Shown here: one piece after another, positions 9,140 to 52,227 of the stretch | Layout of the letters: every line of letters begins with the position of its first letter | Position numbering within the stretch: the stretch's first letter is position 1 | Source of the DNA: an uncultured bacterium | Lineage (GTDB): Bacteria > Verrucomicrobiota > Kiritimatiellia > RFP12 > UBA1067 | Assembly: GCA_902764415.1 (NCBI GenBank) | Contig: CACWVU010000004.1 | Location: 15,758 to 79,757, forward strand | Direction of reading: 5' to 3' | DNA length: 64,000 bases | Position numbers and translations under genes: made by a program | Notes under the pieces: model-generated | Seen by the model: the letters and a program-made list of their open reading frames with translations, nothing else | Told to the model about the DNA's origin: nothing | Database searches by the model: none

Positions 9140-10369
9140 TTATGACCAAAGCACAGACATTGGCACTGCCAACATCCCATTACCAAACGAAAGTGTTTCA
9201 CTTCCCGAATATAGGACGATGCCGACAAATCGGCGTCCCTTGGTCAAATGCTCGCGAAACCACTCAAGATGCCGGAAGTCATTCTTTCCGACTCCAGCAC
9301 CGGCTTTGACCTCAACACCTGCAAGATTGCCGTCTGCATCCTCAACAATGAAGTCTATCTCACGTTTGTCAATGTCGCGGTACTGGTAAAGCGAGTATTC
9401 GCCAGATAAATCGATCTGTGCGGCAAGTTCCGTAAATACAAGCGTCTCGACAATCTTGCCAGACTTGTCAGCATCGAGTTCAATGTCCTTCGTGCGCCAA
9501 TTCAGCATAGCCGCCATGAGACCGGTATCGCACATGTACCATTTCGGACGTTTGCCGATACGCGCATAGTCCGACCCTGTCCAGGCCTCCACGCTTTCGC
9601 AAAGATAGTAGCGTTCCAGCACCCCAAGATACTCCCTGTAGGTGGAACGGGAAAGTCCACACGCAGACTGAAGCGCGTTGGAATCGATATACTTCGACGA
9701 CCATGCGGCAACTGCTTTAAGCAAGTCATAGAGCGCACGCTGCCGACGTATGCGCTCATCATCCTTGATGTCTTTGGAGAACAACGACTTGACATAGTCC
9801 TGAAACCATTCGCGTCTATCCTCAGGCGACAACCTAACCACTTCGGGATATCCTCCGCGAAAGGCAAGGTCTAATACTGTTCTCTTGTCGCAGTCAGGAT
9901 ATAGGCTGTCATAGTCGTTCGCAAAGAGCCTGTCAAGAAACGTTGGCTCCACGCCCTGAATCTCGCCCTGCGCAAACGTTCTCATGCGTATGTTCTTTAC
10001 GCGTCCGGCAAGGCTCTCGTCTGTTTCCGGTGCAGAATATATGTCGGACGAACCCGTTATGACATATTGCCCCGGACGACGATTCCTGTCGACTACCAAC
10101 TTGATCTCCGAAAGGAGCTCCGGAGCCTTTTGCACCTCATCTATGACCATCGGCCCGTCACCGTCATAGCGTACAAAACTCTGCGGGTCAAGAAGCGCGG
10201 CCTCTCGAAGCCGCTTGGAATCAAGACTGCGGATTTCCACCTTGCCATCAAAGAACATTTCAAGCAATGTCGATTTGCCGCATTGCCTTGCACCAGATAT
10301 AATGACTACACGACGCGTTTTAAGCGCCTTGCCAAGAACACGAAAATTCCACCTTGTGACATTGTCCAT
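9140..10369 (-). CDS. AAA-family ATPase with a DUF4143 C-terminal domain
   Basis: Walker A GARQCGKSTL. Paralogue of 29394-30725. Lies in the AT-richer DNA between the 61-bp direct repeats. Confidence 0.75.
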   Translation of the reverse strand: MDNVTRWNFRVLGKALKTRRVVIISGARQCGKSTLLEMFFDGKVEIRSLDSKRLREAALLDPQSFVRYDGDGPMVIDEVQKAPELLSEIKLVVDRNRRPGQYVITGSSDIYSAPETDESLAGRVKNIRMRTFAQGEIQGVEPTFLDRLFANDYDSLYPDCDKRTVLDLAFRGGYPEVVRLSPEDRREWFQDYVKSLFSKDIKDDERIRRQRALYDLLKAVAAWSSKYIDSNALQSACGLSRSTYREYLGVLERYYLCESVEAWTGSDYARIGKRPKWYMCDTGLMAAMLNWRTKDIELDADKSGKIVETLVFTELAAQIDLSGEYSLYQYRDIDKREIDFIVEDADGNLAGVEVKAGAGVGKNDFRHLEWFREHLTKGRRFVGIVLYSGSETLSFGNGMLAVPMSVLWS

Positions 10370-10430
10370 GTGATTTCCCTCTCCTTCTCAAGCAATTTGA
10401 AACATAGTATATCACAACCCCGATAATTTG

Positions 10431-10476
10431 TCTATTAGGAATCCGAGGATTTGTCTATTAGGAATCCGAGGATTTG
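10431..10476. repeat. perfect 23-bp tandem duplication (TCTATTAGGAATCCGAGGATTTG x2)
   Basis: Seen directly in the sequence, immediately upstream of direct-repeat copy 2. Confidence 0.85.
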
Positions 10477-10506
10477 ACAGACTCAAGTCGCCGCCGCGGC
10501 GCTCGC

Positions 10507-10567
10507 CGCCTGCCCAACGGCTGCTGGTACGAGACCGACGACGGCCGCTGGACCCGCAAGTAGCGGC
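10507..10567. repeat. 61-bp direct repeat, copy 2 (duplicate of the 3' end of the ynbE-ydbL gene); att-like
   Basis: Identical to 9032-9092. Confidence 0.8.
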
Positions 10568-10640
10568 AGCCGCCGGCCCCGGTTCCAGGACGGCTCCGGC
10601 AGGTGGTCGCAGAAGAAATGATCAGCAGCCGCATTAAACC

Positions 10641-11408
10641 CTATGGTTTTAAATGCTTTTGCTTCATTAGGTCACGCACCGAAGAATATCCTACTGATGA
10701 AACAACCAAGTGATCGATGAGTGGAATGCCAAGGTCTTTGGAGGTCGCCATTAGCTGACGCGTGGTCTCGATGTCGCCTTCGGATGGCGTGTGGTCACCG
10801 TTTGGATGGTTGTGGGCCACCACTATGCAGTGGGCATCCCATTTTATCGCTTCGCGAAAAACATCCCTCGGCATGACATAAGACGAGTTGGCCTGTCCAC
10901 GCGCAACCTTGATGGGCTCACAGATGGGAATTCGTTTGGCCGTCAAAGGCAGAACCCAGAAATTCTCAAGCACATCTCCTTCTTGCGCGATGAACTTGAA
11001 CACTTCGTATGCATCTTCGGCAGTTGCAACACGCATCTTCTTCAAATCGTCCGGTTTCACGCGAAGACGGCGATACCCGAGTTCAAATGCCGCTGCCAGT
11101 TCCAGCGCCTTGACCTTCCCAATGCCCTTGATAGGCGCTTCTGGGTTCTTTTTGTTGTAGTCAGATATCTTTGCGACAAGAGTACGCCAATCGGCGGTTA
11201 CAAGGTCTTGAATGCACCCAAACGCCCGGATGAGCCGTCTTGCGAGTTCCAAGACGTCACAGCCAGGCGCACCTGTCTTGAGCAGTATCGCAAGAACGGC
11301 CTCATCCTTTAGGTCGTGCGGACTCGCCGCACGCTCCATCTGCTCGCGCGGCAGGAGTTCGCTTGAAACTCCGTTCTTCTTGAAATTGCTTTCCCGCTTC
11401 TTGACCAT
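10641..11408 (-). CDS. radC: RadC-like JAB/MPN domain protein
   Basis: HNHPNGDHTPSEGD JAMM motif and an N-terminal helix-hairpin-helix region. Last gene of the island operon. Confidence 0.8.
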   Translation of the reverse strand: MVKKRESNFKKNGVSSELLPREQMERAASPHDLKDEAVLAILLKTGAPGCDVLELARRLIRAFGCIQDLVTADWRTLVAKISDYNKKNPEAPIKGIGKVKALELAAAFELGYRRLRVKPDDLKKMRVATAEDAYEVFKFIAQEGDVLENFWVLPLTAKRIPICEPIKVARGQANSSYVMPRDVFREAIKWDAHCIVVAHNHPNGDHTPSEGDIETTRQLMATSKDLGIPLIDHLVVSSVGYSSVRDLMKQKHLKP

Positions 11409-11409
11409 A

Positions 11410-12138
11410 TTATACCTCCTCCATCGGCATGGCTATAAAATCATTAAGTTCTTTCCGCAAAATCCTCCAGCGCGGCAATCGCCTGTCCATAAGCTCTACA
11501 AACGCTCTGGAGTGGTTCGACACCTCGAAATGCGTCAGCTCATGTACGACCACATACTCAATGCATCTTGCGGGCACTCTTCCAAGCGCGGCGTTGAAAA
11601 CGATCTTGCCGCGTTTCTTAAGACAACTCGCCCACCGAGTCTTCATCTTCCTAATTTCGGTTTCGGGAAGAGCAAGCTTCAACTTCCTGCACCATCCTTT
11701 CATCTTGCCCGCCAGAGACTCACCCAACATCGCCTTCTGCCATGATTCGACGATCCTCTCCTTATGCCCTCGTGAAGCGCCCTCCCGCACGTACAACGAC
11801 AACTTGTTGCCGCCCCACGTCACCTTTTCCGTCGCATAACGATCTTCCACGACAACCAATAGTTTATACCGGCGGCCAAGACAATAAATGCTCTCTCCGC
11901 TCACATACTCCCGACGCGTCTGGCGAGGCTGGGAAAGAACAGTCTTCCGCTGGTCGCGTATCCAGCCAATCTTGGATGCAAGAAAACTTCTCAAATCGCG
12001 GTCGGAAAGATCATCTGGCGCAGAGACATGCACCCTGGCATCCGGCGGATAGATGGCAAGATGCGTGTGCTTGATCTTCTTTCGCTCGACTTCAATCTGT
12101 ATTCCGGCAACTATCATAGCATCACATCCACGGTTCAT
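11410..12138 (-). CDS. YgjP-like metal-dependent hydrolase (DUF45 / M48 family)
   Basis: HELTHFEVSNHS zinc-binding motif. Sits in the classic position downstream of hsdR. Confidence 0.75.
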   Translation of the reverse strand: MNRGCDAMIVAGIQIEVERKKIKHTHLAIYPPDARVHVSAPDDLSDRDLRSFLASKIGWIRDQRKTVLSQPRQTRREYVSGESIYCLGRRYKLLVVVEDRYATEKVTWGGNKLSLYVREGASRGHKERIVESWQKAMLGESLAGKMKGWCRKLKLALPETEIRKMKTRWASCLKKRGKIVFNAALGRVPARCIEYVVVHELTHFEVSNHSRAFVELMDRRLPRWRILRKELNDFIAMPMEEV

Positions 12139-29393: not shown

Positions 29394-30725
29394 TTAGTTC
29401 TTCATGCCGATGGCGTAGAATGGCAGTGTGGTGAGTTCGCAGCGACCATTGTCGCCTGCGCGCACGGTCTGCCTGCTGAAACGTCCGGCGTCAAACCTGA
29501 TGGCCTGGTCAAGGTGTTTGTCGGCCGTCATCTGCCACAGCGACCTGAGCGAGCCCGCCGCACCGGCCTTGACCTCTATCGGCATGACGACGGAACCGTC
29601 CTCGACAACATAGTCGACCTCGGCATTGCTCTTCGCGCATTCGCGCAGCCAATAGTTCAGGCGCGGCTCTTCAAAATCGCCGCGCCGGAAAAACAGGTGC
29701 TGACCGACAAACTGCTCGGCTATGCTGCCCTCGTTGACCAGCGCAATGTCGTCCATGTCCGACAAACGCGTCCAGGTCAAGCCGTTCGCATAGTTCATCA
29801 GCCCGACATCGATGAACAGCAGCTTCCTCACCGACGGCCGCTCCTCGGCGCCGAGCGGAATACCGTTCGAGTCCGAATGCACCACCGGGCAGGCGATTCT
29901 GGCCTTTATGAACAGGTCGATTACCGACGCCACCTTGGCAGCCTTGCTTTCACGCGAATAGTTGACGAACTTGACCTTCTCTCCGACGCGGGCCGGTATG
30001 GCGCGGAACACGCTCTGCATAAGAGCAAGGTCGGCTCCGTAGGCATATTTTGCGAAATCATCTATGTATGTGTTCACTATCCTGCGGTGCACCGCCGAGA
30101 CCTCCGCGAAGTTCTGCGTGTCAAGCCACGTCTGAGTAGCCTCGGGCATGCCCCCGACAAGCATATAGCGGCGCACAAGATCCATCAGCTTCTCGTGGAC
30201 TGCATCCGAGACGCCGGCGACTACATTCTCCATTGAGATGGATTTGAACAGATATTCATCTGCGGCGGCGACAAACTCGCCGAAGGTAATCGGCCCCAGG
30301 AACATATACTCCACCCTTCCAACGGGCATAGAGAAGTTGTGCCGGGCAAGGGCGAACTCAAGAAGAGATCCTGCCGCAACGATTGGCAGGTTGGGCATTT
30401 CCTCGTAGAAATACCTCAAGGCGTCAATCGCCTCCGGAATCGCCTGAATCTCGTCAAGGAACAAGATGCCCCCGGGTGCCGTCACATCCGATGAAATCCT
30501 GTCGGATATTTCCTGGCAAATCCGCTTGGGATCAAGCGATCGAAATGCCGGTATCAAATCAAGATTCCGGTAGAGATTAATTTCACGAAGCGCGAGACCC
30601 TCGGCCAAGGCGAAATCACGTACAAGCGTTGACTTTCCAACTTGCCGAGCTCCTCGAATAACAAGAGGATGGCGATTGTGGCCTGAAAACCACTTCTTCA
30701 TGCTATTTATCGCATCTCTTTTCAT
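29394..30725 (-). CDS. AAA-family ATPase with a DUF4143 domain (paralogue of 9140-10369)
   Basis: Walker A GARQVGKSTL. At the right edge of the AT-richer island. Confidence 0.75.
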   Translation of the reverse strand: MKRDAINSMKKWFSGHNRHPLVIRGARQVGKSTLVRDFALAEGLALREINLYRNLDLIPAFRSLDPKRICQEISDRISSDVTAPGGILFLDEIQAIPEAIDALRYFYEEMPNLPIVAAGSLLEFALARHNFSMPVGRVEYMFLGPITFGEFVAAADEYLFKSISMENVVAGVSDAVHEKLMDLVRRYMLVGGMPEATQTWLDTQNFAEVSAVHRRIVNTYIDDFAKYAYGADLALMQSVFRAIPARVGEKVKFVNYSRESKAAKVASVIDLFIKARIACPVVHSDSNGIPLGAEERPSVRKLLFIDVGLMNYANGLTWTRLSDMDDIALVNEGSIAEQFVGQHLFFRRGDFEEPRLNYWLRECAKSNAEVDYVVEDGSVVMPIEVKAGAAGSLRSLWQMTADKHLDQAIRFDAGRFSRQTVRAGDNGRCELTTLPFYAIGMKN

Positions 30726-31818: not shown

Positions 31819-32052
31819 AACTCCGATCCGTAGGGCTCTCGCTACCGCTCCGCAGAATGGTCGATGCTTCGCATTTGACATTCGTCTTACACGGCCATAC
31901 TGACCTTATTTTATATCTGCGGCTTCGCCGCAGGGGGCTCATGGGGTCTGGGGCGGAGCCCCAATTAAAAAACAAAGTCATGATATCATCAGTATTGGGG
32001 TTGGCAGATGCGAAGCTGCGGAGCGGTAGCGGGAGCCCCAACCATCGGAGTT
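31819..32052. repeat. structured repeat element with about 45-bp terminal inverted repeats, copy A (MITE-like or structured RNA)
   Basis: Ends AACTCCGATCCGTAGGGCTCTCGCTACCGCTCCGCAG ... CTGCGGAGCGGTAGCGGGAGCCCCAACCATCGGAGTT. Core TTTTATATCTGCGGCTTCGCCGCAGGGGG. Hairpin TGGGGCGGAGCCCCA. Second copy at 51958-52227. Confidence 0.75.
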
Positions 32053-32062
32053 CCAACTATCC

Positions 32063-33460
32063 CTACGCGATGACGCGGTCGTTGCGGCCGGGGATGCCGA
32101 GCTTGTCGCGGTACTTCGCGACCGTCCGCCGCGCCACCGGATAGCCCGCGGCCTTGAGCTCGGCGACGATCTTCTCGTCCGACAGCGGGTTGGACTTGTC
32201 CTCGCCGTCCACGATCTCCCTGAGCTTGCCCAGCACCGCCTCCTGCGAGACGGTCTCGCCGGCGGCGGTCTTCACTCCGGTCGAGAAGAACCGCCGCAGC
32301 TCGATGGTGCCGAACGGCGTCTCGGCGTACTTGTCGCGCACCGTGCGCGAGACGGTGGTGCCGTGCACCCCGACCGCCGCGGCGACCTCGAGCTCGGTGA
32401 GCGGCTTCAGCGCGCCGAAGCCGCGCTCGAAGAAGTCCTGCTGGCGGTCGAACACCGCCTGCGCGATATCCCTCACCGTCTGGCGCCGCTTCTCGATCGC
32501 CTCGCGGAACGCACGCGCGGCCGCGATGCGCTCGCGCACGTACGCCTTGGTCTCGGCGGTCTGGCTCTTGTCCTTCAGCAGGTCCTCGAACGACTTCGAG
32601 AAGCGGATCTCCGGGAGCGACCGCTCGTCGGTCTCGGCGATCCAGCGGCCGTCGAGCTTGCGCGCATGGATCTCCGGGTTGACGAACTCGACGCGCTCGC
32701 GCTCGCTGGGGAACTGGCGCCCGGGACGGCCGTCGAGCGAACGGAGCGCGACCATGGCGGCGGCGAAGCGCTCCTTGGAAAAGCCGTGCGCCTTGCAGAT
32801 CGCGTCGGTCCGCCCGGCCTCGATGTCGGCGAGGTGGCCGGAGACGATTTTGCGGACGTCCTCGCGGACGGCAGGGTCGGCGATCGACTCGAGCTGGGAG
32901 AGGAGGCACTCCTCCACCGTGCGCGAGCCGCAGCCGGGCGGGTCGAGGTCGCGGATCTTCGCAAGCACGGCAATGACCTCGTCCTCGCTCTTGCCGAACG
33001 CCATCGCCACGTCGGCAAGCGAGCCTTTGTAGTACCCCTTCTCGTCCAGGTCGCCGATCAGCACCTCGGCCATCGGGAAGTCGGCTGCGTCGATGTCGGA
33101 AAGCGGCAGCTGCTCGACGAGGTGGCCCTGCAGCGTCTCCTCCTTGACCAGGTTGTCGAAGAACGCCTGGCGGCGCTCGGCCGCCTCCTCGTCGTGCCCG
33201 ACGGTGGGCTCGTAGCCGTCCTCGGGGAAGTCCGGCTCGTCCTGCTCCCGCTCGCGGTCGAGCTTGGCCTCCACCTCGGAAAGCGGCGTCTCGAGCGGAT
33301 GATCCATGTCCTCGATCGCCGGGTTGGCGCTCATTTCCGCGGCGATTTCGGCGCGCAGCTCCGGAAGCGACATCGCCAGCAGCTTCAGCCCCTGCATCTG
33401 GCGGCCGGAGATCGCGAGCTTCTGCTGCTGCGCGGCGGTTATGGACATCGACTGGTTCAT
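32063..33460 (-). CDS. rpoN: RNA polymerase sigma-54 factor
   Basis: RpoN box ARRTVAKYRDKLGIP. Start moved to MNQSMSIT (33458-33460), ATGA overlap with the upstream gene. The ORF-track extension is GC artefact. Confidence 0.9.
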   Translation of the reverse strand: MNQSMSITAAQQQKLAISGRQMQGLKLLAMSLPELRAEIAAEMSANPAIEDMDHPLETPLSEVEAKLDREREQDEPDFPEDGYEPTVGHDEEAAERRQAFFDNLVKEETLQGHLVEQLPLSDIDAADFPMAEVLIGDLDEKGYYKGSLADVAMAFGKSEDEVIAVLAKIRDLDPPGCGSRTVEECLLSQLESIADPAVREDVRKIVSGHLADIEAGRTDAICKAHGFSKERFAAAMVALRSLDGRPGRQFPSERERVEFVNPEIHARKLDGRWIAETDERSLPEIRFSKSFEDLLKDKSQTAETKAYVRERIAAARAFREAIEKRRQTVRDIAQAVFDRQQDFFERGFGALKPLTELEVAAAVGVHGTTVSRTVRDKYAETPFGTIELRRFFSTGVKTAAGETVSQEAVLGKLREIVDGEDKSNPLSDEKIVAELKAAGYPVARRTVAKYRDKLGIPGRNDRVIA

Positions 33461-34359
33461 CTCTCGGGCGGCTCCAGGATCCAGCGCTTGTTGTACCAGT
33501 ACCAGTCGCCGGGGCGCTTGCGCACCTCGCGGTCGATGAGCGACATCGCCTCGCGCGTGATCCGCTCCGCCTCGGCGCGCGGGTCGGCGGCGGAGGGGTC
33601 GGGGCGAAGGGTGGCGATGTGGTTGAAGACGTGGCGCCCGCCGTCGCGGACCATCTGCGCCACCACCACCGGCGAACCGCAGCGGACGGCGAACATCGCG
33701 CCGGCGCGGCTGACGTTGGCCTTGCCGCCGAAGAAGTCCGCCTCGACGTCGCGCTTGCGCACCCTGAGGTCGGGCAGGATCGCGAACACGCGCCCCGCCT
33801 CGAGCCCGGCGCGGATCTTCGCGAGCGTGTCGCGGCAGTCGCGGTCCAGCACCTCCACCGCGCCGTACTGGCGGTTCATCCACGCGTCGATCTTCGGGTT
33901 GCGCTGGCGCGCGGCGATGGCGAAGAGCCTGAGCCCGTAGACCGCCATCGACCACGCCGCCATGTACCAGTTGCCGGAGTGGGGCACCATCACCACCACG
34001 CCGTGCCCTTCGTCGGCGTAGGCCTGGAGGCGCTCCTTGTACTTGAGCCCGTCCAGCACGTGGCGGTCCATCCACCTGCGGCCGAGCTTCGGCGCGCGCA
34101 TCATCTCGACCGCGTTGAGGAGCATGTTCTGGAGGGAGCGGACGGCGACGCGGCGCACCTCGCGCGCGGACATCTCCGGAAACACCGAGCGGATGCGCCC
34201 TTCGGTACGGCGGCGCTTGAAGGCGAAGACGCGAACAAGCATCCAGCCGACGGCGCGGGCGAGCGCCGCGGCGCAGCAGTAGGGAAGCGCGTTCACGAGC
34301 CCGCACGCGAGGCGCAGCCCGGCGTACTCGGCGTTTACCGCAGCTCTTCCCTTGGCCAT
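33457..34359 (-). CDS. lipid A biosynthesis lauroyl/myristoyl acyltransferase family (LpxL/HtrB-like)
   Basis: N-terminal TM segment, HSGNW motif, PF03279-like. Confidence 0.7.
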   Translation of the reverse strand: MAKGRAAVNAEYAGLRLACGLVNALPYCCAAALARAVGWMLVRVFAFKRRRTEGRIRSVFPEMSAREVRRVAVRSLQNMLLNAVEMMRAPKLGRRWMDRHVLDGLKYKERLQAYADEGHGVVVMVPHSGNWYMAAWSMAVYGLRLFAIAARQRNPKIDAWMNRQYGAVEVLDRDCRDTLAKIRAGLEAGRVFAILPDLRVRKRDVEADFFGGKANVSRAGAMFAVRCGSPVVVAQMVRDGGRHVFNHIATLRPDPSAADPRAEAERITREAMSLIDREVRKRPGDWYWYNKRWILEPPER

Positions 34360-34364
34360 CGCGC

Positions 34365-34844
34365 CTACTGCGCCTCGGCGAGGTTGCGCCGGGCGTCCTC
34401 GATCGCGCGGCAGACGGCGCGCGAGGTGATGGTGGCGGCGGTGATCGCTTCGATGTCGCCGCCGTCCTTCTTCACCTTGAGCGAGGTCGCGTCCTTCCCC
34501 GAGAACTGCCCGGCGAACTCTGGCGTCTTCAGCTTCATCCCAAGGCCGGGCGTCTCCGACGCCTGCAGCACCTTGTAGGAGATGACGGTCTTCTTGTCCT
34601 TTTTGAAGCCGACCATCAGCACGATGTCGCCGCCGTAGCCGTCCTTGCAGCGGCCCTCCGCGGTGAAGCCGTCCTCGCCGCAGAGGACGGCCGCCTTCGC
34701 CGCCTCGCGGGCCTTCGCGGCCGTGGCCTTGATCGGCTCGGCGGTGATGCCGTTCACGTACGCAAGCACCGCGGCGCAGACGCCGCTGATGAGCGTGAGG
34801 CTGACGACGAGACTAAGTATCTTCTTCATATCACTTCGCTCCAA
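34365..34844 (-). CDS. rnfG: Rnf electron-transport complex subunit G (FMN-binding)
   Basis: TM anchor and the TGATITS FMN_bind motif. Confidence 0.8.
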   Translation of the reverse strand: MERSDMKKILSLVVSLTLISGVCAAVLAYVNGITAEPIKATAAKAREAAKAAVLCGEDGFTAEGRCKDGYGGDIVLMVGFKKDKKTVISYKVLQASETPGLGMKLKTPEFAGQFSGKDATSLKVKKDGGDIEAITAATITSRAVCRAIEDARRNLAEAQ

Positions 34845-35832
34845 AAGGCTTGGGCTGGGTCCAGCGGTTGATGAGGGGGCAGACCGCGTTCATGATCAGG
34901 ATCGCGAACGAGCAGCCCTCGGGATAGGAGCCGAACTGGCGGATGAGCATGCAGACGAGTCCGCAGCCGCAGCCGAAGATCAGCTTGCCCTTCGCGGTGA
35001 TCGGGCTCGTGACGTAGTCCGTCGCCATGAAGCACGCGCCGATCATCACGCCGCCGGTGAGGACCTGCATCGTCGCCGGCGCACCGCCCGCGATCAGCGA
35101 ATAGACGAACACCGTCGCGATGAAGGCGACCGGGATGTGCCAGGTGATGACCTTGCGGAAGAGGAGGTACGCCGCGCCGACCGCGATTGCAATCGCCGAC
35201 ACCTCGCCGATGCAGCCGGGGATGTTGCCGATCGCCATGTCCCAGAGGCCGGGCACGCCCTTGCAGGCGGCGTTGCAGAGCCCGTGCGGCGTCGCCGACG
35301 ACATCGCCTCGGCGCCGAACCAGGTCTTCATCACGGCGAGCGGCGTCGCGGTCGTCATCGCCTCGGGCGTCTTCCACCAGAACGGCTTGAGCCAGGTGGT
35401 CATCGGTCCGGTGAAGCTGATGAGCATGAACGCGCGCGCGGCGAGCGCGGGGTTGAAAGGGTTCATGCCTAGTCCGCCGAACACCTGCTTGGCGACGCCG
35501 ATCGCGAACACCGAGCCGACGACCGCCATCCAGAGCGGCAGCCCCGCCGGCAGGTTGAGCGCGAGGAGGAGTCCAGTCACGACGGCCGAGAGGTCGCCGA
35601 TGGTGTTCTCGCGCTTCATCGCGAGCCGGCACAGCGCCTCCGTGACGATGCAGGTCGAGACGCAGGTCGCGATCGTCCAGACCGCCGGCATCCCGAAGAA
35701 CCAGATGCCCGCGGCTGTCGTCGGCAGCAGCGCGATGATCACGTCGAGCATGATGCGCGACACGCTCGCACGCCCGTGCGCGTGCGGCGACGAGCTCAGT
35801 ATGTAGTGTTCCGCTGTTTCCTTCGGTTTCAT
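34831..35832 (-). CDS. rnfD: Rnf complex subunit D
   Basis: Polytopic membrane protein, RnfD/NqrB family pattern. Confidence 0.85.
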   Translation of the reverse strand: MKPKETAEHYILSSSPHAHGRASVSRIMLDVIIALLPTTAAGIWFFGMPAVWTIATCVSTCIVTEALCRLAMKRENTIGDLSAVVTGLLLALNLPAGLPLWMAVVGSVFAIGVAKQVFGGLGMNPFNPALAARAFMLISFTGPMTTWLKPFWWKTPEAMTTATPLAVMKTWFGAEAMSSATPHGLCNAACKGVPGLWDMAIGNIPGCIGEVSAIAIAVGAAYLLFRKVITWHIPVAFIATVFVYSLIAGGAPATMQVLTGGVMIGACFMATDYVTSPITAKGKLIFGCGCGLVCMLIRQFGSYPEGCSFAILIMNAVCPLINRWTQPKPFGAK

Positions 35833-37223
35833 TTAGCCTCCTTTGCGGCCGCGGCGGCGGCCTTGGCCTTCTCTGCGGCGACGCGCGCGCGGATGGACGC
35901 CTTGGCGCGGCGGCAGCTCTGGGTGATGGTGCGGTAGGCCGGGCAGCCGAAGCTGCACGCGCCGCATTCGATGCAGTCCATCACGTGCGCGTCCTCCGCC
36001 GCCTTGACGTCGTTGGCGTCCACGACCCGCGAGATGAGCGCGGGGTTGAGGTTCATCGGGCAGGCGCGGACGCACCGACCGCAGCCGATGCACGCGCCCG
36101 ACGCGTACTGGAAGACGCGCTTCTTCGAGAGGAGCAGCAGCCCCGAGGTCGTCTTGGTGGTGCCGATCTCCAGCGTCGAGACGGCGAAGCCCATCATCGT
36201 GCCGCCGGAGATCACCTTGGCCGGCGGCTCCTTCTCGCCGCCGCAGAACGCGACCAGGTCGGAGTACTTGGTGCCGCTCGGCGCCAGCACGTTCTTCGGC
36301 TCCGCCACGGCGTCGCCCGAGACCGTCGTCACGCGCTCGAGGAGCGGCTCGCCCTTCTCCACCGCGTCGGCTATCGCCGCGACGGTGCCGACGTTCTCGA
36401 CCACGCAGCCGACGTCGATCGGCAGCGCCGGCGGCTCTGGGACTACGCGCCCGACCGTCGCGTAGATCTGGTGCTTTTCGCTTCCCTGTGGATAGAGGAC
36501 GGGGAGAACCACGATCTCGACGTTGCCCTCGATGTCCGCAAACGCCTTCTCCATCGCCGCGATCGCCTCCGGCTTGTTCGCCTCGATGGCAATCCTCACC
36601 GCCGGGCCGCCGAGGATCTTGCGCATGATCTCCACGCCGACGCAGATGCGGTCGGCGCGCTCAAGCATGACGCGGAAGTCCGCGGTCAGGTACGGCTCGC
36701 ACTCCGCGCCGTTCAGGACCAGGTACTCGCAGCGCTTGTTCGGCGGCGGATTGAGCTTGACGGCGGTCGGGAAGCCGGCGCCGCCCATGCCGCAGATGCC
36801 AGCCTCCTCGACGCGCTTCAGCAATTCCTCCCTCGAGGCCGTCTTCCAGTCGAGCGGCGCAAGAACGGGCGAAACGCCCGGAACCGCGCCCTCCGGCGCC
36901 TCTGCCGTCGTGTCCAGAATCACCGCGTCGGCCTTGGCGCCGGTCGGTCCCGGACGCTTCTCCACCGCCTTGACGAGGCCGTCCGCCGGCGCACGCACGA
37001 GGACGGAGATGAAGCCGTTCTTCTCGCCGATGAGCTGGCCGCGCGTCACGAAGTCCCCGGCCTTGACGATGCACTTCGCCGGCGCGCCGAGGTGCTGGCT
37101 CATCGAGACGACCAGCTCCGCCGGCACCGGCATCCGCTCGATCGCCTTGCCGCGCGCGAGTTCCTTGTTGTAGTCGGGGTGAACCCCGCCCTTGAACTTA
37201 AACGGACTTTTGACCGTCTTCAT
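35829..37223 (-). CDS. rnfC: Rnf complex subunit C
   Basis: Two 4Fe-4S motifs (CIGCGRCVRACP, CIECGACSFGCP) and GxGGAGFP. RBS AAGGAGAAG. Confidence 0.9.
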   Translation of the reverse strand: MKTVKSPFKFKGGVHPDYNKELARGKAIERMPVPAELVVSMSQHLGAPAKCIVKAGDFVTRGQLIGEKNGFISVLVRAPADGLVKAVEKRPGPTGAKADAVILDTTAEAPEGAVPGVSPVLAPLDWKTASREELLKRVEEAGICGMGGAGFPTAVKLNPPPNKRCEYLVLNGAECEPYLTADFRVMLERADRICVGVEIMRKILGGPAVRIAIEANKPEAIAAMEKAFADIEGNVEIVVLPVLYPQGSEKHQIYATVGRVVPEPPALPIDVGCVVENVGTVAAIADAVEKGEPLLERVTTVSGDAVAEPKNVLAPSGTKYSDLVAFCGGEKEPPAKVISGGTMMGFAVSTLEIGTTKTTSGLLLLSKKRVFQYASGACIGCGRCVRACPMNLNPALISRVVDANDVKAAEDAHVMDCIECGACSFGCPAYRTITQSCRRAKASIRARVAAEKAKAAAAAAKEAK

Positions 37224-38476
37224 CTTGTCTTCTCCTTCCCGAGGCCGATCTTCTTGCAGACGTTGTCATGGATGCGATATCCGTCTGGCAGCGACTGCCC
37301 TTGGCCATTATGCGCATTGCAATAGACGAGCCCGTGGGGCGCCTCCTCGAAGACATTGCCCGAAACGTCAATGTCAACCGAATCGGTCTCCATGGCGTAG
37401 ACGAGGAGCGGCGTCGCCGCCTTCCGGCACGGACGGGCCGTCTCGCCCCAACCGCCGCCAACTCGCAGGGTGCGGTTTCCCGTAAAGGAACAGTTCGCGA
37501 AACCCACGCCCTTCGGAGCCTTCCGGCACCAGACCTCAAACGCCTGGCTGCAGTCCGTCATCGTGCAATCGCGGCACAGGACGTTCCGCCAGCCCTTCTT
37601 CGGATAGCCCTGCATCGTAAAGGCCACGTCGTAGACGCCGCGGAAGGAACAGCGCTCGATGATGACGTTCTCGGCGTCGCCGCCCAGTTCGACGCCGTTG
37701 CCGAAGCGAACGCGGAATCCCCGTTCCTTCTCGTACCCCGGCAGCTCCGATCCGCCGATGTTCTCGAGATCGCAGTCCGCGATGCGGACGTCGCGAACCG
37801 AATGGCCCCAGCCGGCATGCATGCCGTGCGCACCCGTCGCGCGGACCGCGATGTTGCTGATGACGGTGAACGAGCCGAACTGGACGCAGTATACGCGCAG
37901 CGCCACGCGGATGTCCTTCGCCAGCTTCGCCGGATTCTCGTCCGCATGCACGTACAGCCAGCCATCCGTGCCACAGAAATCCCACGGCGAGACGAGATCA
38001 GCGCGGCAATACCGACGCCACGGCTTCAGCGCGCCATCCACCAGCAGGAAGCCTGGATTGCAGTCCATCGAGACGAGGCCATCGTAATTCGAAGGGTTGG
38101 AAAGGTCGATCCGCCAGAAGCAGTGCGACAGATCCTCCCAGGCGGACGGATCGCTCCGCAGGTTCTTCGTCGCGGAAATGACGGGCTTCGGCCCCTCTCC
38201 CCAGCTCGTCACCACAGTCGGACGCCGCGCATCCAGTCCCGCTGCCGGACGCAGCTGTCCGTAGAAGACGTCCCCGCTCTTCAGACACAATGTCGCGCCC
38301 CCCGGCAGCTCCGCGGAGGCCTTCGCCAAGGTGCGCCACGCCGTTGCCGGCGTCCGCCCGTCCGCCGCGTCGTCGCCGGCGTTCGCCAAGTAGCGCGTCT
38401 CGACCGCGACCCCGCGCGCACCTGCGCACGCAAGAGTCGTCGCCAAGGCCAGCGCCACTCGTGTCAAACCACTCAT
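37220..38476 (-). CDS. secreted right-handed parallel beta-helix (pectin-lyase-fold) protein inserted inside the rnf operon
   Basis: Signal peptide MSGLTRVALALATTLACAGA. Repeated N..C/N.I beta-helix rungs. 2-nt gap after the rnfB stop and ATGA overlap with the rnfC start. Confidence 0.65.
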   Translation of the reverse strand: MSGLTRVALALATTLACAGARGVAVETRYLANAGDDAADGRTPATAWRTLAKASAELPGGATLCLKSGDVFYGQLRPAAGLDARRPTVVTSWGEGPKPVISATKNLRSDPSAWEDLSHCFWRIDLSNPSNYDGLVSMDCNPGFLLVDGALKPWRRYCRADLVSPWDFCGTDGWLYVHADENPAKLAKDIRVALRVYCVQFGSFTVISNIAVRATGAHGMHAGWGHSVRDVRIADCDLENIGGSELPGYEKERGFRVRFGNGVELGGDAENVIIERCSFRGVYDVAFTMQGYPKKGWRNVLCRDCTMTDCSQAFEVWCRKAPKGVGFANCSFTGNRTLRVGGGWGETARPCRKAATPLLVYAMETDSVDIDVSGNVFEEAPHGLVYCNAHNGQGQSLPDGYRIHDNVCKKIGLGKEKTR

Positions 38477-38478
38477 TC

Positions 38479-39288
38479 TCAGTGTCCGGTTTCGAAGTGG
38501 GGGTCGACCGACATGCACTTGGCCGGGCATTTGGCGACTATCTGCTCGTCGTCCGGCGGGTTCGCGTAGTTGACCTTGGCGAGGAAGCCCTGGAACTCGA
38601 AGTGCCCGGCCTCCTTGCCGCCGGAGTTCTTCTCGCAGAGGTGGCAGCCCATGCAGCCGACGCCGCAGACCTTGCGCACCGCCGGGCCCTTGTCGGGATT
38701 GTTGCAGAGGACGTGGATCGTCGCCGACGCGGGGACGAGCTCGATGATGTGCTTCGGGCACGCGGTCACGCACTTGCCGCAGCCGATGCAGAGGCGCTTG
38801 TCCACCTTGGCGAGGCCGTCGTGGATCGAGATCGCGCCCTTGGGACACACGTTCGCGCACGCGCCGTAGCCGAGGCAGCCGTAGGTGCAGCCCTTGTCGC
38901 CGCCCGCCGTCATCGCGGCGACGCCGCAGTCGCAGATGCCGTTGTAGTCGCCGACGCGGATCGCCTCCGAACGCGTGCCGCAGCACTTGACGAGCGCGAC
39001 GCGACGTTCGGTCGCCGTCGCCTCCACGCCGAGGATCTTCGCGATCTCCTTCGCGCAGGCGTCGCCGCCGGCCGCGCAGGCGCCGTTGGGCGCTGTCCCC
39101 GCGACGAGAGCGCGCGCGTAGCCGTCGCAGCCGGGGAAGCCGCAGCCGCCGCAGTTCGCGCCGGGGAGCGCGGCGGTCACCATGCCGATGCGCGGGTCCT
39201 CCTTGACGCTGAGGTAACGGTCCGCCACGGCGAGCGCGACGGCCGCGACCAGCCCCACTCCGGCGATGACTGCAATTGCGATGGTCAT
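38479..39288 (-). CDS. rnfB: Rnf complex subunit B
   Basis: N-terminal TM, cysteine clusters, two ferredoxin CxxCxxCxxxCP motifs. Confidence 0.9.
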   Translation of the reverse strand: MTIAIAVIAGVGLVAAVALAVADRYLSVKEDPRIGMVTAALPGANCGGCGFPGCDGYARALVAGTAPNGACAAGGDACAKEIAKILGVEATATERRVALVKCCGTRSEAIRVGDYNGICDCGVAAMTAGGDKGCTYGCLGYGACANVCPKGAISIHDGLAKVDKRLCIGCGKCVTACPKHIIELVPASATIHVLCNNPDKGPAVRKVCGVGCMGCHLCEKNSGGKEAGHFEFQGFLAKVNYANPPDDEQIVAKCPAKCMSVDPHFETGH

Positions 39289-39313
39289 ATGGCTGTTTGT
39301 CCTTTTCGAGGTG

Positions 39314-39337
39314 TCTAGGATCCTAGGTTTCTAGGAG
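39314..39337. promoter_or_regulatory. CTAG-rich palindromic motif TCTAGGATCCTAGGTTTCTAGGAG in the rnfB-rnfA intergenic region
   Basis: Shares about 22 bp with 48046-48076. CTAG is otherwise nearly absent from the window. Confidence 0.4.
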
Positions 39338-39346
39338 ACTGGGATT

Positions 39347-39934
39347 TTAGTAGGGGAGCTTCACGAGGCCAGAGAAGCCCATGAACGCGAGGCTCAGGAG
39401 ACCGCCGGTGACGAGCGCGATCGCCATGCCGCGGAAGCACCGCGGCGGATCGGCGTAGGCGAGCTTCTCGCGGATGCCGGAGAAGATGACGAGCGCGAAG
39501 CCGAAGCCGACGGCGGCGGAGAAGGAGAAGAAGACCGACTCGAAGAAGCCTGTCCCCTGCTTGCAGTTGATCTCCGCCGCGCCGAGGACGGCGCAGTTGG
39601 TGGTGATGAGCGGCAGGAAGATGCCGAGCGCCGCGTGGAGCGGCGGCAGGAAGCGCTTCATCGCAATGTCGATGAACTGCACCAGCGAGGCGATCACCAG
39701 GATGAACGCGAGGGTGTGGATGTAGCCGAGGCCGAACGGCTGCAGCAGCCAGTGGTCGATCGCCCAGGCAACAGCCGAGGCCGCCGTCATCACGAACACC
39801 ACCGCGCCCGACATGCCCAGCGCGGTCTCGGTCTTCTTCGAGACCCCGAGGAAGGGGCAGCACCCAAGAAACCGGCTGAGGACGAAGTTGTTCACCAGCA
39901 CGGCGCCAACGAGAATCATCAGATAGTAGCTCAT
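39347..39934 (-). CDS. rnfA: Rnf complex subunit A
   Basis: Strong colinear similarity to E. coli RsxA (LVNNFVL..FLG.CPF.GVSKK..TA.GM..., ITTNCAVLG). Confidence 0.9.
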
Positions 39935-39941
39935 GGGCGGT

Positions 39942-39950
39942 ATTATACCA
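39942..39950 (-). promoter_or_regulatory. extended -10 TGGTATAAT, leaderless rnf operon promoter
   Basis: TGGTATAAT + ACCGCCC (7 nt) + ATG of rnfA. Confidence 0.55.
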
Positions 39951-51957: not shown

Positions 51958-52227
51958 AACTCCGATCTGTGGGGCTCTCGCTACCGCTCCGCAGAATAGG
52001 CTATGCTTCGCATTTGATATTCGTCAATACACAGCCACTTTTGCCATGTTTTATATCTGCGGCTTCGCCGCAGGGGATATAGTTCGGGGGTCTGGGGGTA
52101 GCGCCCCCAGATAAAAAACTATGTGCCCTTTGTGCTCTCTGCGTTATAGACAAATGACATGGTACTGGATTGGGGTTGCGAGATGCGAAGCGGCGGAACG
52201 GTAGTGAGAGCCCCAACCATCGGAGTT
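51958..52227. repeat. structured repeat element, copy B
   Basis: Same termini and core as 31819-32052. The hairpin is replaced by CTGGGGGTAGCGCCCCCAG, a compensatory change. Confidence 0.75.

Follow-up and report, generated by a model that had tools for sequence, protein, structure and literature searches.

We analyzed a window of 64,000 nucleotides (nt) of contig CACWVU010000004.1 (assembly GCA_902764415.1), which comes from an uncultured rumen bacterium of the Kiritimatiellae and contains an rnf gene cluster without a linked rnfE and with an additional gene, here called X, between rnfB and rnfC. Other loci and contigs are cited by handles of the form L092. Six genes lie on the minus strand within positions 34365-39950, in the order rnfA, rnfB, X, rnfC, rnfD, rnfG and with spacings of -4 to +58 nt:

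39347-39934, minus strand: rnfA, membrane subunit of the Rnf-Nqr family, 195 amino acids (aa) (PF02508, E=7.5e-59; TIGR01943, 256.5 bits for a cutoff of 229)
38479-39288, minus strand: rnfB, iron-sulfur subunit, 269 aa (PF04060 and Fer4 domains; TIGR01944 above cutoff)
37220-38476, minus strand: X, right-handed beta-helix protein with a Sec signal peptide, 418 aa, a passenger resembling carbohydrate-active enzymes (CAZymes) at the rnfB/rnfC junction
35829-37223, minus strand: rnfC, NADH/FMN-binding subunit with two 4Fe-4S motifs, 464 aa (RnfC_N, Complex1_51K, SLBB and Fer4 domains; TIGR01945, 487.8 bits)
34831-35832, minus strand: rnfD, 333 aa (PF03116, E=5.9e-119; TIGR01946, 341 bits, above cutoff)
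34365-34829, minus strand: rnfG, short form of the periplasmic FMN subunit, 154 aa (PF04205; TIGR01947, 108.5 bits for a cutoff of 102)

The rnfB stop codon (TGA, 38481-38479) is separated by a gap of 2 nt from the ATG of X at 38476, and the stop codon of X (TGA, 37222-37220) shares the letters ATGA with the start codon of rnfC (ATG, 37223-37221). An earlier note on this DNA had described the same gene order, gap and overlap; the order is borne out by the Pfam and NCBIfam matches and the coordinates, and both junctions can be read directly in the sequence. The start of rnfG given here is the ATG at 34829 chosen by the gene callers, and the mechanical open reading frame (ORF) opens at a TTG at 34844 (159 aa).

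The rnf products were compared to the curated cutoffs of Pfam and NCBIfam. RnfA, RnfB, RnfC, RnfD and RnfG each scored above their NCBIfam cutoff (TIGR01943, TIGR01944, TIGR01945, TIGR01946 and TIGR01947, respectively). The 195-aa membrane protein scored 98 bits with the RnfE model (cutoff 213) and 256 bits with TIGR01943, which identifies it as RnfA and not RnfE. It is 62% identical to E. coli RsxA, and both cysteines of the 2Fe-2S cluster are retained in the alignment. Nine of its lysines and arginines are located in the odd loops and two elsewhere, and this bias indicates that the topology of RnfA is fixed. The ATPL flavinylation motif of RnfD aligns with that of E. coli RsxD, the TAATITS of RnfG lines up with the TGATITP of E. 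coli (the flavinylated threonine motif for FMN attachment), and RnfC bears two CxxCxxCxxxCP motifs, CIGCGRCVRACP and CIECGACSFGCP. At 154 aa, RnfG is unusually short (the E. coli protein has 206 aa): its periplasmic domain is missing ~50 residues in its N-terminal part, and the FMN-attachment motif is kept. Finally, the dN/dS ratios of all the rnf genes relative to three relatives range from 0.03 to 0.36, which indicates purifying selection. Judged from these sequence features, the locus is a genuine Rnf (ferredoxin:NAD+ oxidoreductase) cluster.

Just beyond the right end of the window, we observed the gamma, alpha and beta genes of a Na+-translocating oxaloacetate decarboxylase (L181 3999-7638 and L182 1735-3243). 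Their presence suggests that the cell exploits a sodium gradient, which a Na+-Rnf would also do.

The exact X protein was found on 23 contigs from rumen and gut metagenomes, and the metagenome-assembled genomes (MAGs) among these sources are labeled Kiritimatiellae or Verrucomicrobia. Nine of the ten places shown repeat the arrangement of the window at 99.1-100% DNA identity, which argues against an assembly artefact. Related species keep the arrangement as well, and its reading frames are uninterrupted and evolve under purifying selection. We consider it very improbable that the arrangement was created by assembly or gene calling, even though one contig, L010 (ERZ1048286 scaffold_1685), is clearly chimeric and joins a Bacteroidales-type rseC-rnfB, inside rnfB, to rnfB-X-rnfC. 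Only positions 9671-11769 of this contig match the window. Its positions 9168-9998 encode a hybrid RnfB whose N-terminal 182 aa are of the Bacteroidales type and which switches at a shared CPKHIIEL stretch; this hybrid protein forms a cluster of three, and its join was thus assembled repeatedly. The donor is represented by an intact Bacteroidales-type rseC-rnfBCDGEA operon on a 136-kb scaffold (L186). The tetranucleotide composition of this scaffold correlates with that of the window at r=0.905, no closer than other genera, and segments of the same genome reach 0.94-0.99. The possibility that L010, with its rseC-rnfB followed by an identical X, represents a second rnf locus of the same organism was rejected because the contig is chimeric.

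We searched the six-frame ORFs of the window for a second Rnf-Nqr paralogue using phmmer, with either the RnfA of the window or E. coli RsxE as a query, and found none. That the RsxE query recovered rnfA (E=5.5e-17) shows that the search had sufficient sensitivity. No RnfE-type ORF was found either in the ~10 kb past each end of the window. The earlier statement that no RnfE-like protein is encoded in the window is confirmed by both queries, and rnfE was not overlooked as an adjacent or mis-called gene, in the window or in the ~10 kb beyond either end. In total, the search covered ~84 kb of this genome, and a few percent of any one genome was seen; this does not by itself establish the absence of rnfE from the organism.

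A scan of metagenomes with RnfD yielded 80 loci (63-99% identity). No RnfE-type ORF was detected with phmmer in the six-frame ORFs of any of these 80 loci or of five additional rnfAB loci. The RnfD-anchored loci whose flanks are present read rnfA-rnfB-rnfC-rnfD-rnfG-lpxL. Other Kiritimatiellae, with an RnfA of 90% identity, carry rnfA-rnfB by itself, with housekeeping or sugar-utilisation genes downstream, and several RnfD-anchored loci present 5-8 kb or more upstream of rnfC without rnfAB. The rnf genes are demonstrably dispersed in this clade. Since rnfAB is unlinked from rnfCDG in several of its genomes, an unlinked rnfE would be unremarkable. In our literature searches, the term 'rnfABCDG' appeared in no paper, and none that we found dealt with how rnf genes are ordered in Kiritimatiellae.

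RnfA and RnfE form an inverted heterodimer that holds an intramembrane 2Fe-2S cluster, and every solved Rnf/Nqr complex presents such a pair, either RnfA/RnfE or NqrE/NqrD (PMC12174285). Three points lead us to expect the partner elsewhere: the fixed topology of RnfA, the inverted RnfE of the solved complexes, and the purifying selection on the rnf genes. The gene rnfE most probably has an unlinked location in the genome. Alternatively, the clade might truly be devoid of RnfE and use another membrane core (RnfA alone or a borrowed partner) or a non-classical Rnf chemistry. We view this as unlikely. The absence of an RnfE-type ORF from the window, its ~10-kb flanks and the 80 RnfD-anchored and five rnfAB loci is what such a clade would present, and the five rnf genes are nevertheless conserved. 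However, an RnfA with 62% identity to RsxA and a charge bias of 9 versus 2 cannot insert both ways to form an inverted pair alone, and all of the solved complexes place the 2Fe-2S cluster between the two different proteins (PMC12174285). In addition, the scattering of rnf genes in the clade and the small fraction of each genome that was searched both leave ample room for an unlinked rnfE.

X was initially proposed to sit where rnfE might be expected. This is incorrect, because rnfE follows rnfG in the order A-B-C-D-G-E. The further suggestion that X is an insertion that displaced rnfE stands only in its first part: an insertion is favored by the base composition of X and by the variability of the junction, both described below. 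In contrast, rnfE is missing from the cluster across the clade, including many relatives in which rnfB directly abuts rnfC, so X displaced nothing.

The N-terminus of X resembles a signal peptide by eye (MSGLTRVALALATTLACA). Its match to the Pfam family Beta_helix is weak (21.7 bits, under the 25.9 cutoff), it matches nothing in NCBIfam, and neither database places it in a known Rnf/Nqr accessory family (RnfH, RnfX, RseC, ApbE or NqrM). The AlphaFold2 model of X is a right-handed parallel beta-helix (mean pLDDT of 90.2 and pTM of 0.89), in agreement with the fold first proposed for it. When this model was compared to the PDB with Foldseek, all 50 of the 50 matches at E <= 0.001 were beta-helix glycosidases, polysaccharide lyases or phage tailspike/depolymerase proteins. 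These include XylC (3vst), GH136 lacto-N-biosidases, BT_1002, GH110, a rhamnogalacturonan lyase, polygalacturonases and capsule lyase/depolymerases. The matches have a probability of 1.0 and E-values down to 7.5e-12, with TM-scores of just 0.3-0.46. We take XylC to be a GH120 enzyme and BT_1002 a GH141 enzyme. A profile of the X family matched GH136 chains at E=2e-11, a similarity restricted to residues 15-98 (the N-terminal ~80). Based on the model and its matches, X appears to be a beta-helix of the CAZyme type, of the kind that cleaves polysaccharides.

Three cysteines of X are invariant and a fourth is found in 16 of the 18 sequences. All four are found at an equivalent position from one coil to the next (ADC, ERC, RDC and ANC) and read as a structural ladder. 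A role of these cysteines in cofactor binding, which the earlier note had raised as a point to check, was rejected: they recur at a repeated coil position and form no motif of the Fe-S type. The alignment of the X family also presents invariant D, E, Q, N and R positions. The dN/dS of X ranges from 0.09 to 0.36, indicating that it encodes a working protein.

More than 550 stretches of species-representative genomes matched the X family, and we examined the gene contexts of the best 80 loci. The family spans Kiritimatiellae, Clostridia, Bacteroidota and Actinomycetota. X lies inside an rnf cluster in three of these 80 loci, and a fourth (L040) presents rnfC/rnfD ~8 kb off. Fusions to polysaccharide deacetylase or SGNH esterase domains occur in some homologues. 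One homologue with 60-70% identity to X adjoins a GH10 gene, and others are found with GH28 and acetyl-xylan esterase genes or with GDSL esterases and GH39. Such CAZyme-context paralogues are found in L093, L014 and L184, whereas the copy of the window is inside rnf.

Composition and phylogeny point to a foreign origin of X within the operon. Its G+C content at third codon positions (GC3) is 0.81, and all eight neighboring genes range from 0.92 to 0.95. In the tree of RnfC and RnfD, the nearest relatives of the window (87-91% identity) are without X: their rnfB/rnfC junction is empty or occupied by a SIMPL gene, or the cluster is split. X is present in the more distant L092 and L015 (83% identity). 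In the tree of X, rnf-embedded copies and copies from CAZyme clusters interleave. The window and L092 form a pair whose sister group, with 100% bootstrap support, consists of three non-rnf copies, and the rnf-embedded copies of L015 and L183 branch farther out. A single ancient insertion of X followed by vertical inheritance is unsupported by either tree. Between the window and L092, dS is 0.36 for X, 0.56 for rnfB and 0.79 for rnfC; the value of X below those of its flanking genes hints at exchange of X between lineages.

The junctions of X suggest how it was accommodated. The rnfB-TGAgaATG-X junction of the window parallels rnfB-TGAcaATG-rnfC in L105. In addition, X ends in a C-terminal tail, GLGKEKTR, which is missing in the non-rnf homologues and is encoded by a purine-rich stretch that serves as the ribosome-binding site of rnfC. 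Because of this matching start and of the overlap between the tail and the ribosome-binding site, X looks like cargo fitted into the translational coupling of the operon.

The same junction is variable across the clade. In relatives, rnfB and rnfC are separated by an empty spacer of 2-43 nt, by a SIMPL/DUF541 gene, by a HipA-like+HTH gene (alone, with an IVS protein, or with a XamI-type endonuclease and a C5 methylase), or by a 685-aa protein of no assigned function plus X; in some relatives, rnfAB is wholly separated from rnfCDG at this point. The rnfC/rnfD junction receives cargo as well: RhuM-like and Sel1 genes, AlbA_2/HATPase_c_4 and DUF3990 genes, an IVS protein (23S-IVS) or a second beta-helix-like gene. 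Cargo at one or the other of these two junctions was found in L011, L012, L015, L092, L103, L115, L125, L166, L174, L175, L176 and L183; in L015, moreover, rnfA and rnfB are separated by an SDF symporter gene. The cargo junctions showed no integrase, repeats or attachment site, for which no systematic search was made.

We conclude that X is an insertion, a passenger gene, and not a subunit of the Rnf complex. One competing explanation assigns X a lineage-specific, periplasmic role in the Rnf complex, either as an accessory subunit, which the earlier note had suggested, or as an assembly factor. Its position between rnfB and rnfC is held in the species of the window, in L011/L012/L099, L092, L015 and L183. 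X still overlaps rnfC by ATGA or more, it evolves under purifying selection, and its signal peptide would direct it to the side of the membrane where RnfG is found. Nevertheless, X has its fold matches among carbohydrate-active enzymes only, it has no redox-cofactor motif and it matches no known Rnf/Nqr accessory family. Homologues with 60-70% identity are found in CAZyme clusters without rnf genes nearby, and X is absent from the nearest relatives in the RnfC+RnfD tree. Moreover, the rnfB/rnfC junction also takes toxin-like, restriction-modification and other unrelated genes, and the GC3 of X is atypical for the operon. An accessory role is thus not supported and very unlikely, although the persistence of X at this place in several lineages leaves it a small probability.

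Several observations weigh against a passenger gene in a cluster whose rnfE is unlinked. At least four lineages, with X proteins just 47-82% identical to that of the window, keep X between rnfB and rnfC in overlapping or tightly spaced frames, a persistence that exceeds what a neutral passenger needs. X is also predicted to be exported to the side of the membrane where RnfG resides. No catalytic residues or substrate of X were identified, and it falls outside every curated glycosidase family. Finally, rnfE was not found in the ~84 kb of this genome that were inspected.

On balance, we assign a probability of roughly three in four to the joint explanation that the locus is a genuine, clade-typical rnfABCDG-lpxL cluster, that X is CAZyme-like cargo at rnfB/rnfC and that rnfE is located at an unlinked site. 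Under this explanation, the cluster of the clade is rnfA-rnfB-rnfC-rnfD-rnfG-lpxL and does not include rnfE. X would have landed as cargo at the clade-variable rnfB/rnfC junction. It would now begin where rnfC begins in an insert-free relative (TGA-N2-ATG), and its tail would read through the ribosome-binding stretch of rnfC and finish in the ATGA overlap. X is probably co-transcribed and co-translated with the rnf genes, and it would act on plant polysaccharide in the periplasm or at the cell surface, with no part in electron transfer. The obligatory partner of RnfA, RnfE with its inverted topology, would most probably be encoded away from the cluster.

The promoter of the cluster is found immediately upstream of rnfA:

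39942-39950, minus strand: extended -10 element TGGTATAAT, read directly, ending 7 nt before the rnfA ATG

No Shine-Dalgarno sequence was seen between this element and the ATG when the 39950-39934 region was read directly. A consensus promoter scan did not flag the element, which was missed because it has no -35 match. A TGnTATAAT-like element is located 6-12 nt before the rnfA ATG in most relatives, including L095, L103, L128, L133, L148, L152, L155, L160, L171 and L176. Exceptions are L137 and L141, where a canonical -35/-10 pair (TTGACA-17-TATAAT) precedes a leader of ~35 nt. It is a reasonable inference that the rnf mRNA is leaderless or near-leaderless, and the similarity among relatives suggests that translation of rnfA without a leader is a conserved feature of these Kiritimatiellae. 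The leaderless promoter proposed earlier is supported in its sequence elements, i.e., an extended -10 that abuts the rnfA ATG without a Shine-Dalgarno sequence and recurs in most relatives, and the leaderless mRNA itself is deduced from them.

Two further genes adjoin the cluster downstream of rnfG:

33457-34359, minus strand: lpxL-like gene (lipid A acyltransferase-like; PF03279), 5 nt past rnfG
32063-33460, minus strand: rpoN (sigma-54), with Sigma54 domains in the called genes of L001, mapped back onto the window

An lpxL-like gene comes next after rnfG in most relatives whose locus extends beyond rnfG. In the window, rpoN overlaps the end of the lpxL-like gene by 4 nt. Given this overlap and the 5-nt gap after rnfG, the transcription unit possibly extends beyond 34365-39950, and rpoN may be its last gene.

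We made two other observations in the window. First, an intergenic repeat of ~125 nt is dispersed at 31819-31936 and 51958-52076 (minus strand), in copies that are 86-87% identical. It opens with a perfect CTGCGGC-GAA-GCCGCAG hairpin, and further copies are found just outside both ends of the window (L179 ~17506 and L182 ~16994) and in the sister species L011 (406 and 16811). The repeat has no match to a tRNA or an Rfam family, and its fold shows no clear gain in stability over shuffled sequences (z=-1.5). Second, a low-GC island spans ~9100-30700, where GC content falls to 41% versus 67% in the flanks. Two AAA_14/DUF4143 ATPase genes (9140-10369 and 29394-30701) mark its edges, and it contains a type I restriction-modification system (HsdR and two N6_Mtase/HsdM genes), RadC and a YgjP-like gene. 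This is probably a horizontally acquired defence island.

Our results describe a clade-wide variant of Rnf gene order, rnfABCDG without a linked rnfE, which is sometimes split into rnfAB and rnfCDG and has an apparently leaderless start. Automated calls of a 'complete Rnf' in Kiritimatiellae MAGs should not depend on one contiguous operon. No rnfE was seen in a total of about 90 loci of the clade. If rnfE were truly absent from these genomes, their membrane core would be unlike that of every solved Rnf/Nqr complex and the accepted architecture would need to be revisited. For genome evolution, two junctions of a tightly packed respiratory operon receive unrelated cargo (CAZyme-like, toxin-like and restriction-modification genes), and one of these cargo genes, X, has been fitted into the translational coupling of the operon. 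For the present, we regard the beta-helix gene as an ordinary passenger.

The locus can be compared to three known systems. With E. coli rsxABCDGE and proteobacterial rnfABCDGE, it shares the order A-B-C-D-G, the cluster cysteines of RnfA and the flavinylation motifs of RnfD and RnfG. It differs from them in presenting an lpxL-like gene and rpoN after rnfG instead of rnfE, in its interleaved unrelated genes, in the split of some relatives into rnfAB and rnfCDG, in its short RnfG and in a promoter that directly abuts the start codon. X has the same fold class as beta-helix CAZymes such as XylC (3vst), GH136 (5gqc, 6kqs and 7v6m), BT_1002 (5mqp), GH110, rhamnogalacturonan lyase and GH28. Like them, it is predicted to be secreted, it presents N-terminal sequence similarity to GH136, and it has paralogues among GH10, GH28, GH39 and esterase genes. 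In contrast, X is shorter (~400 versus ~600 aa), belongs to no curated family, and its copy here lies within a respiratory operon. Finally, integration hotspots between core genes likewise present fixed flanks, here rnfB/rnfC and rnfC/rnfD, with cargo that differs by lineage and includes restriction-modification and HipA-like toxin-type genes. The rnfB/rnfC junction might be a hotspot of integration internal to an operon, and the genes that land there, X among them, would then be translationally coupled to a respiratory complex; unlike the known hotspots, the site is located among the tightly packed genes of a single enzyme complex.

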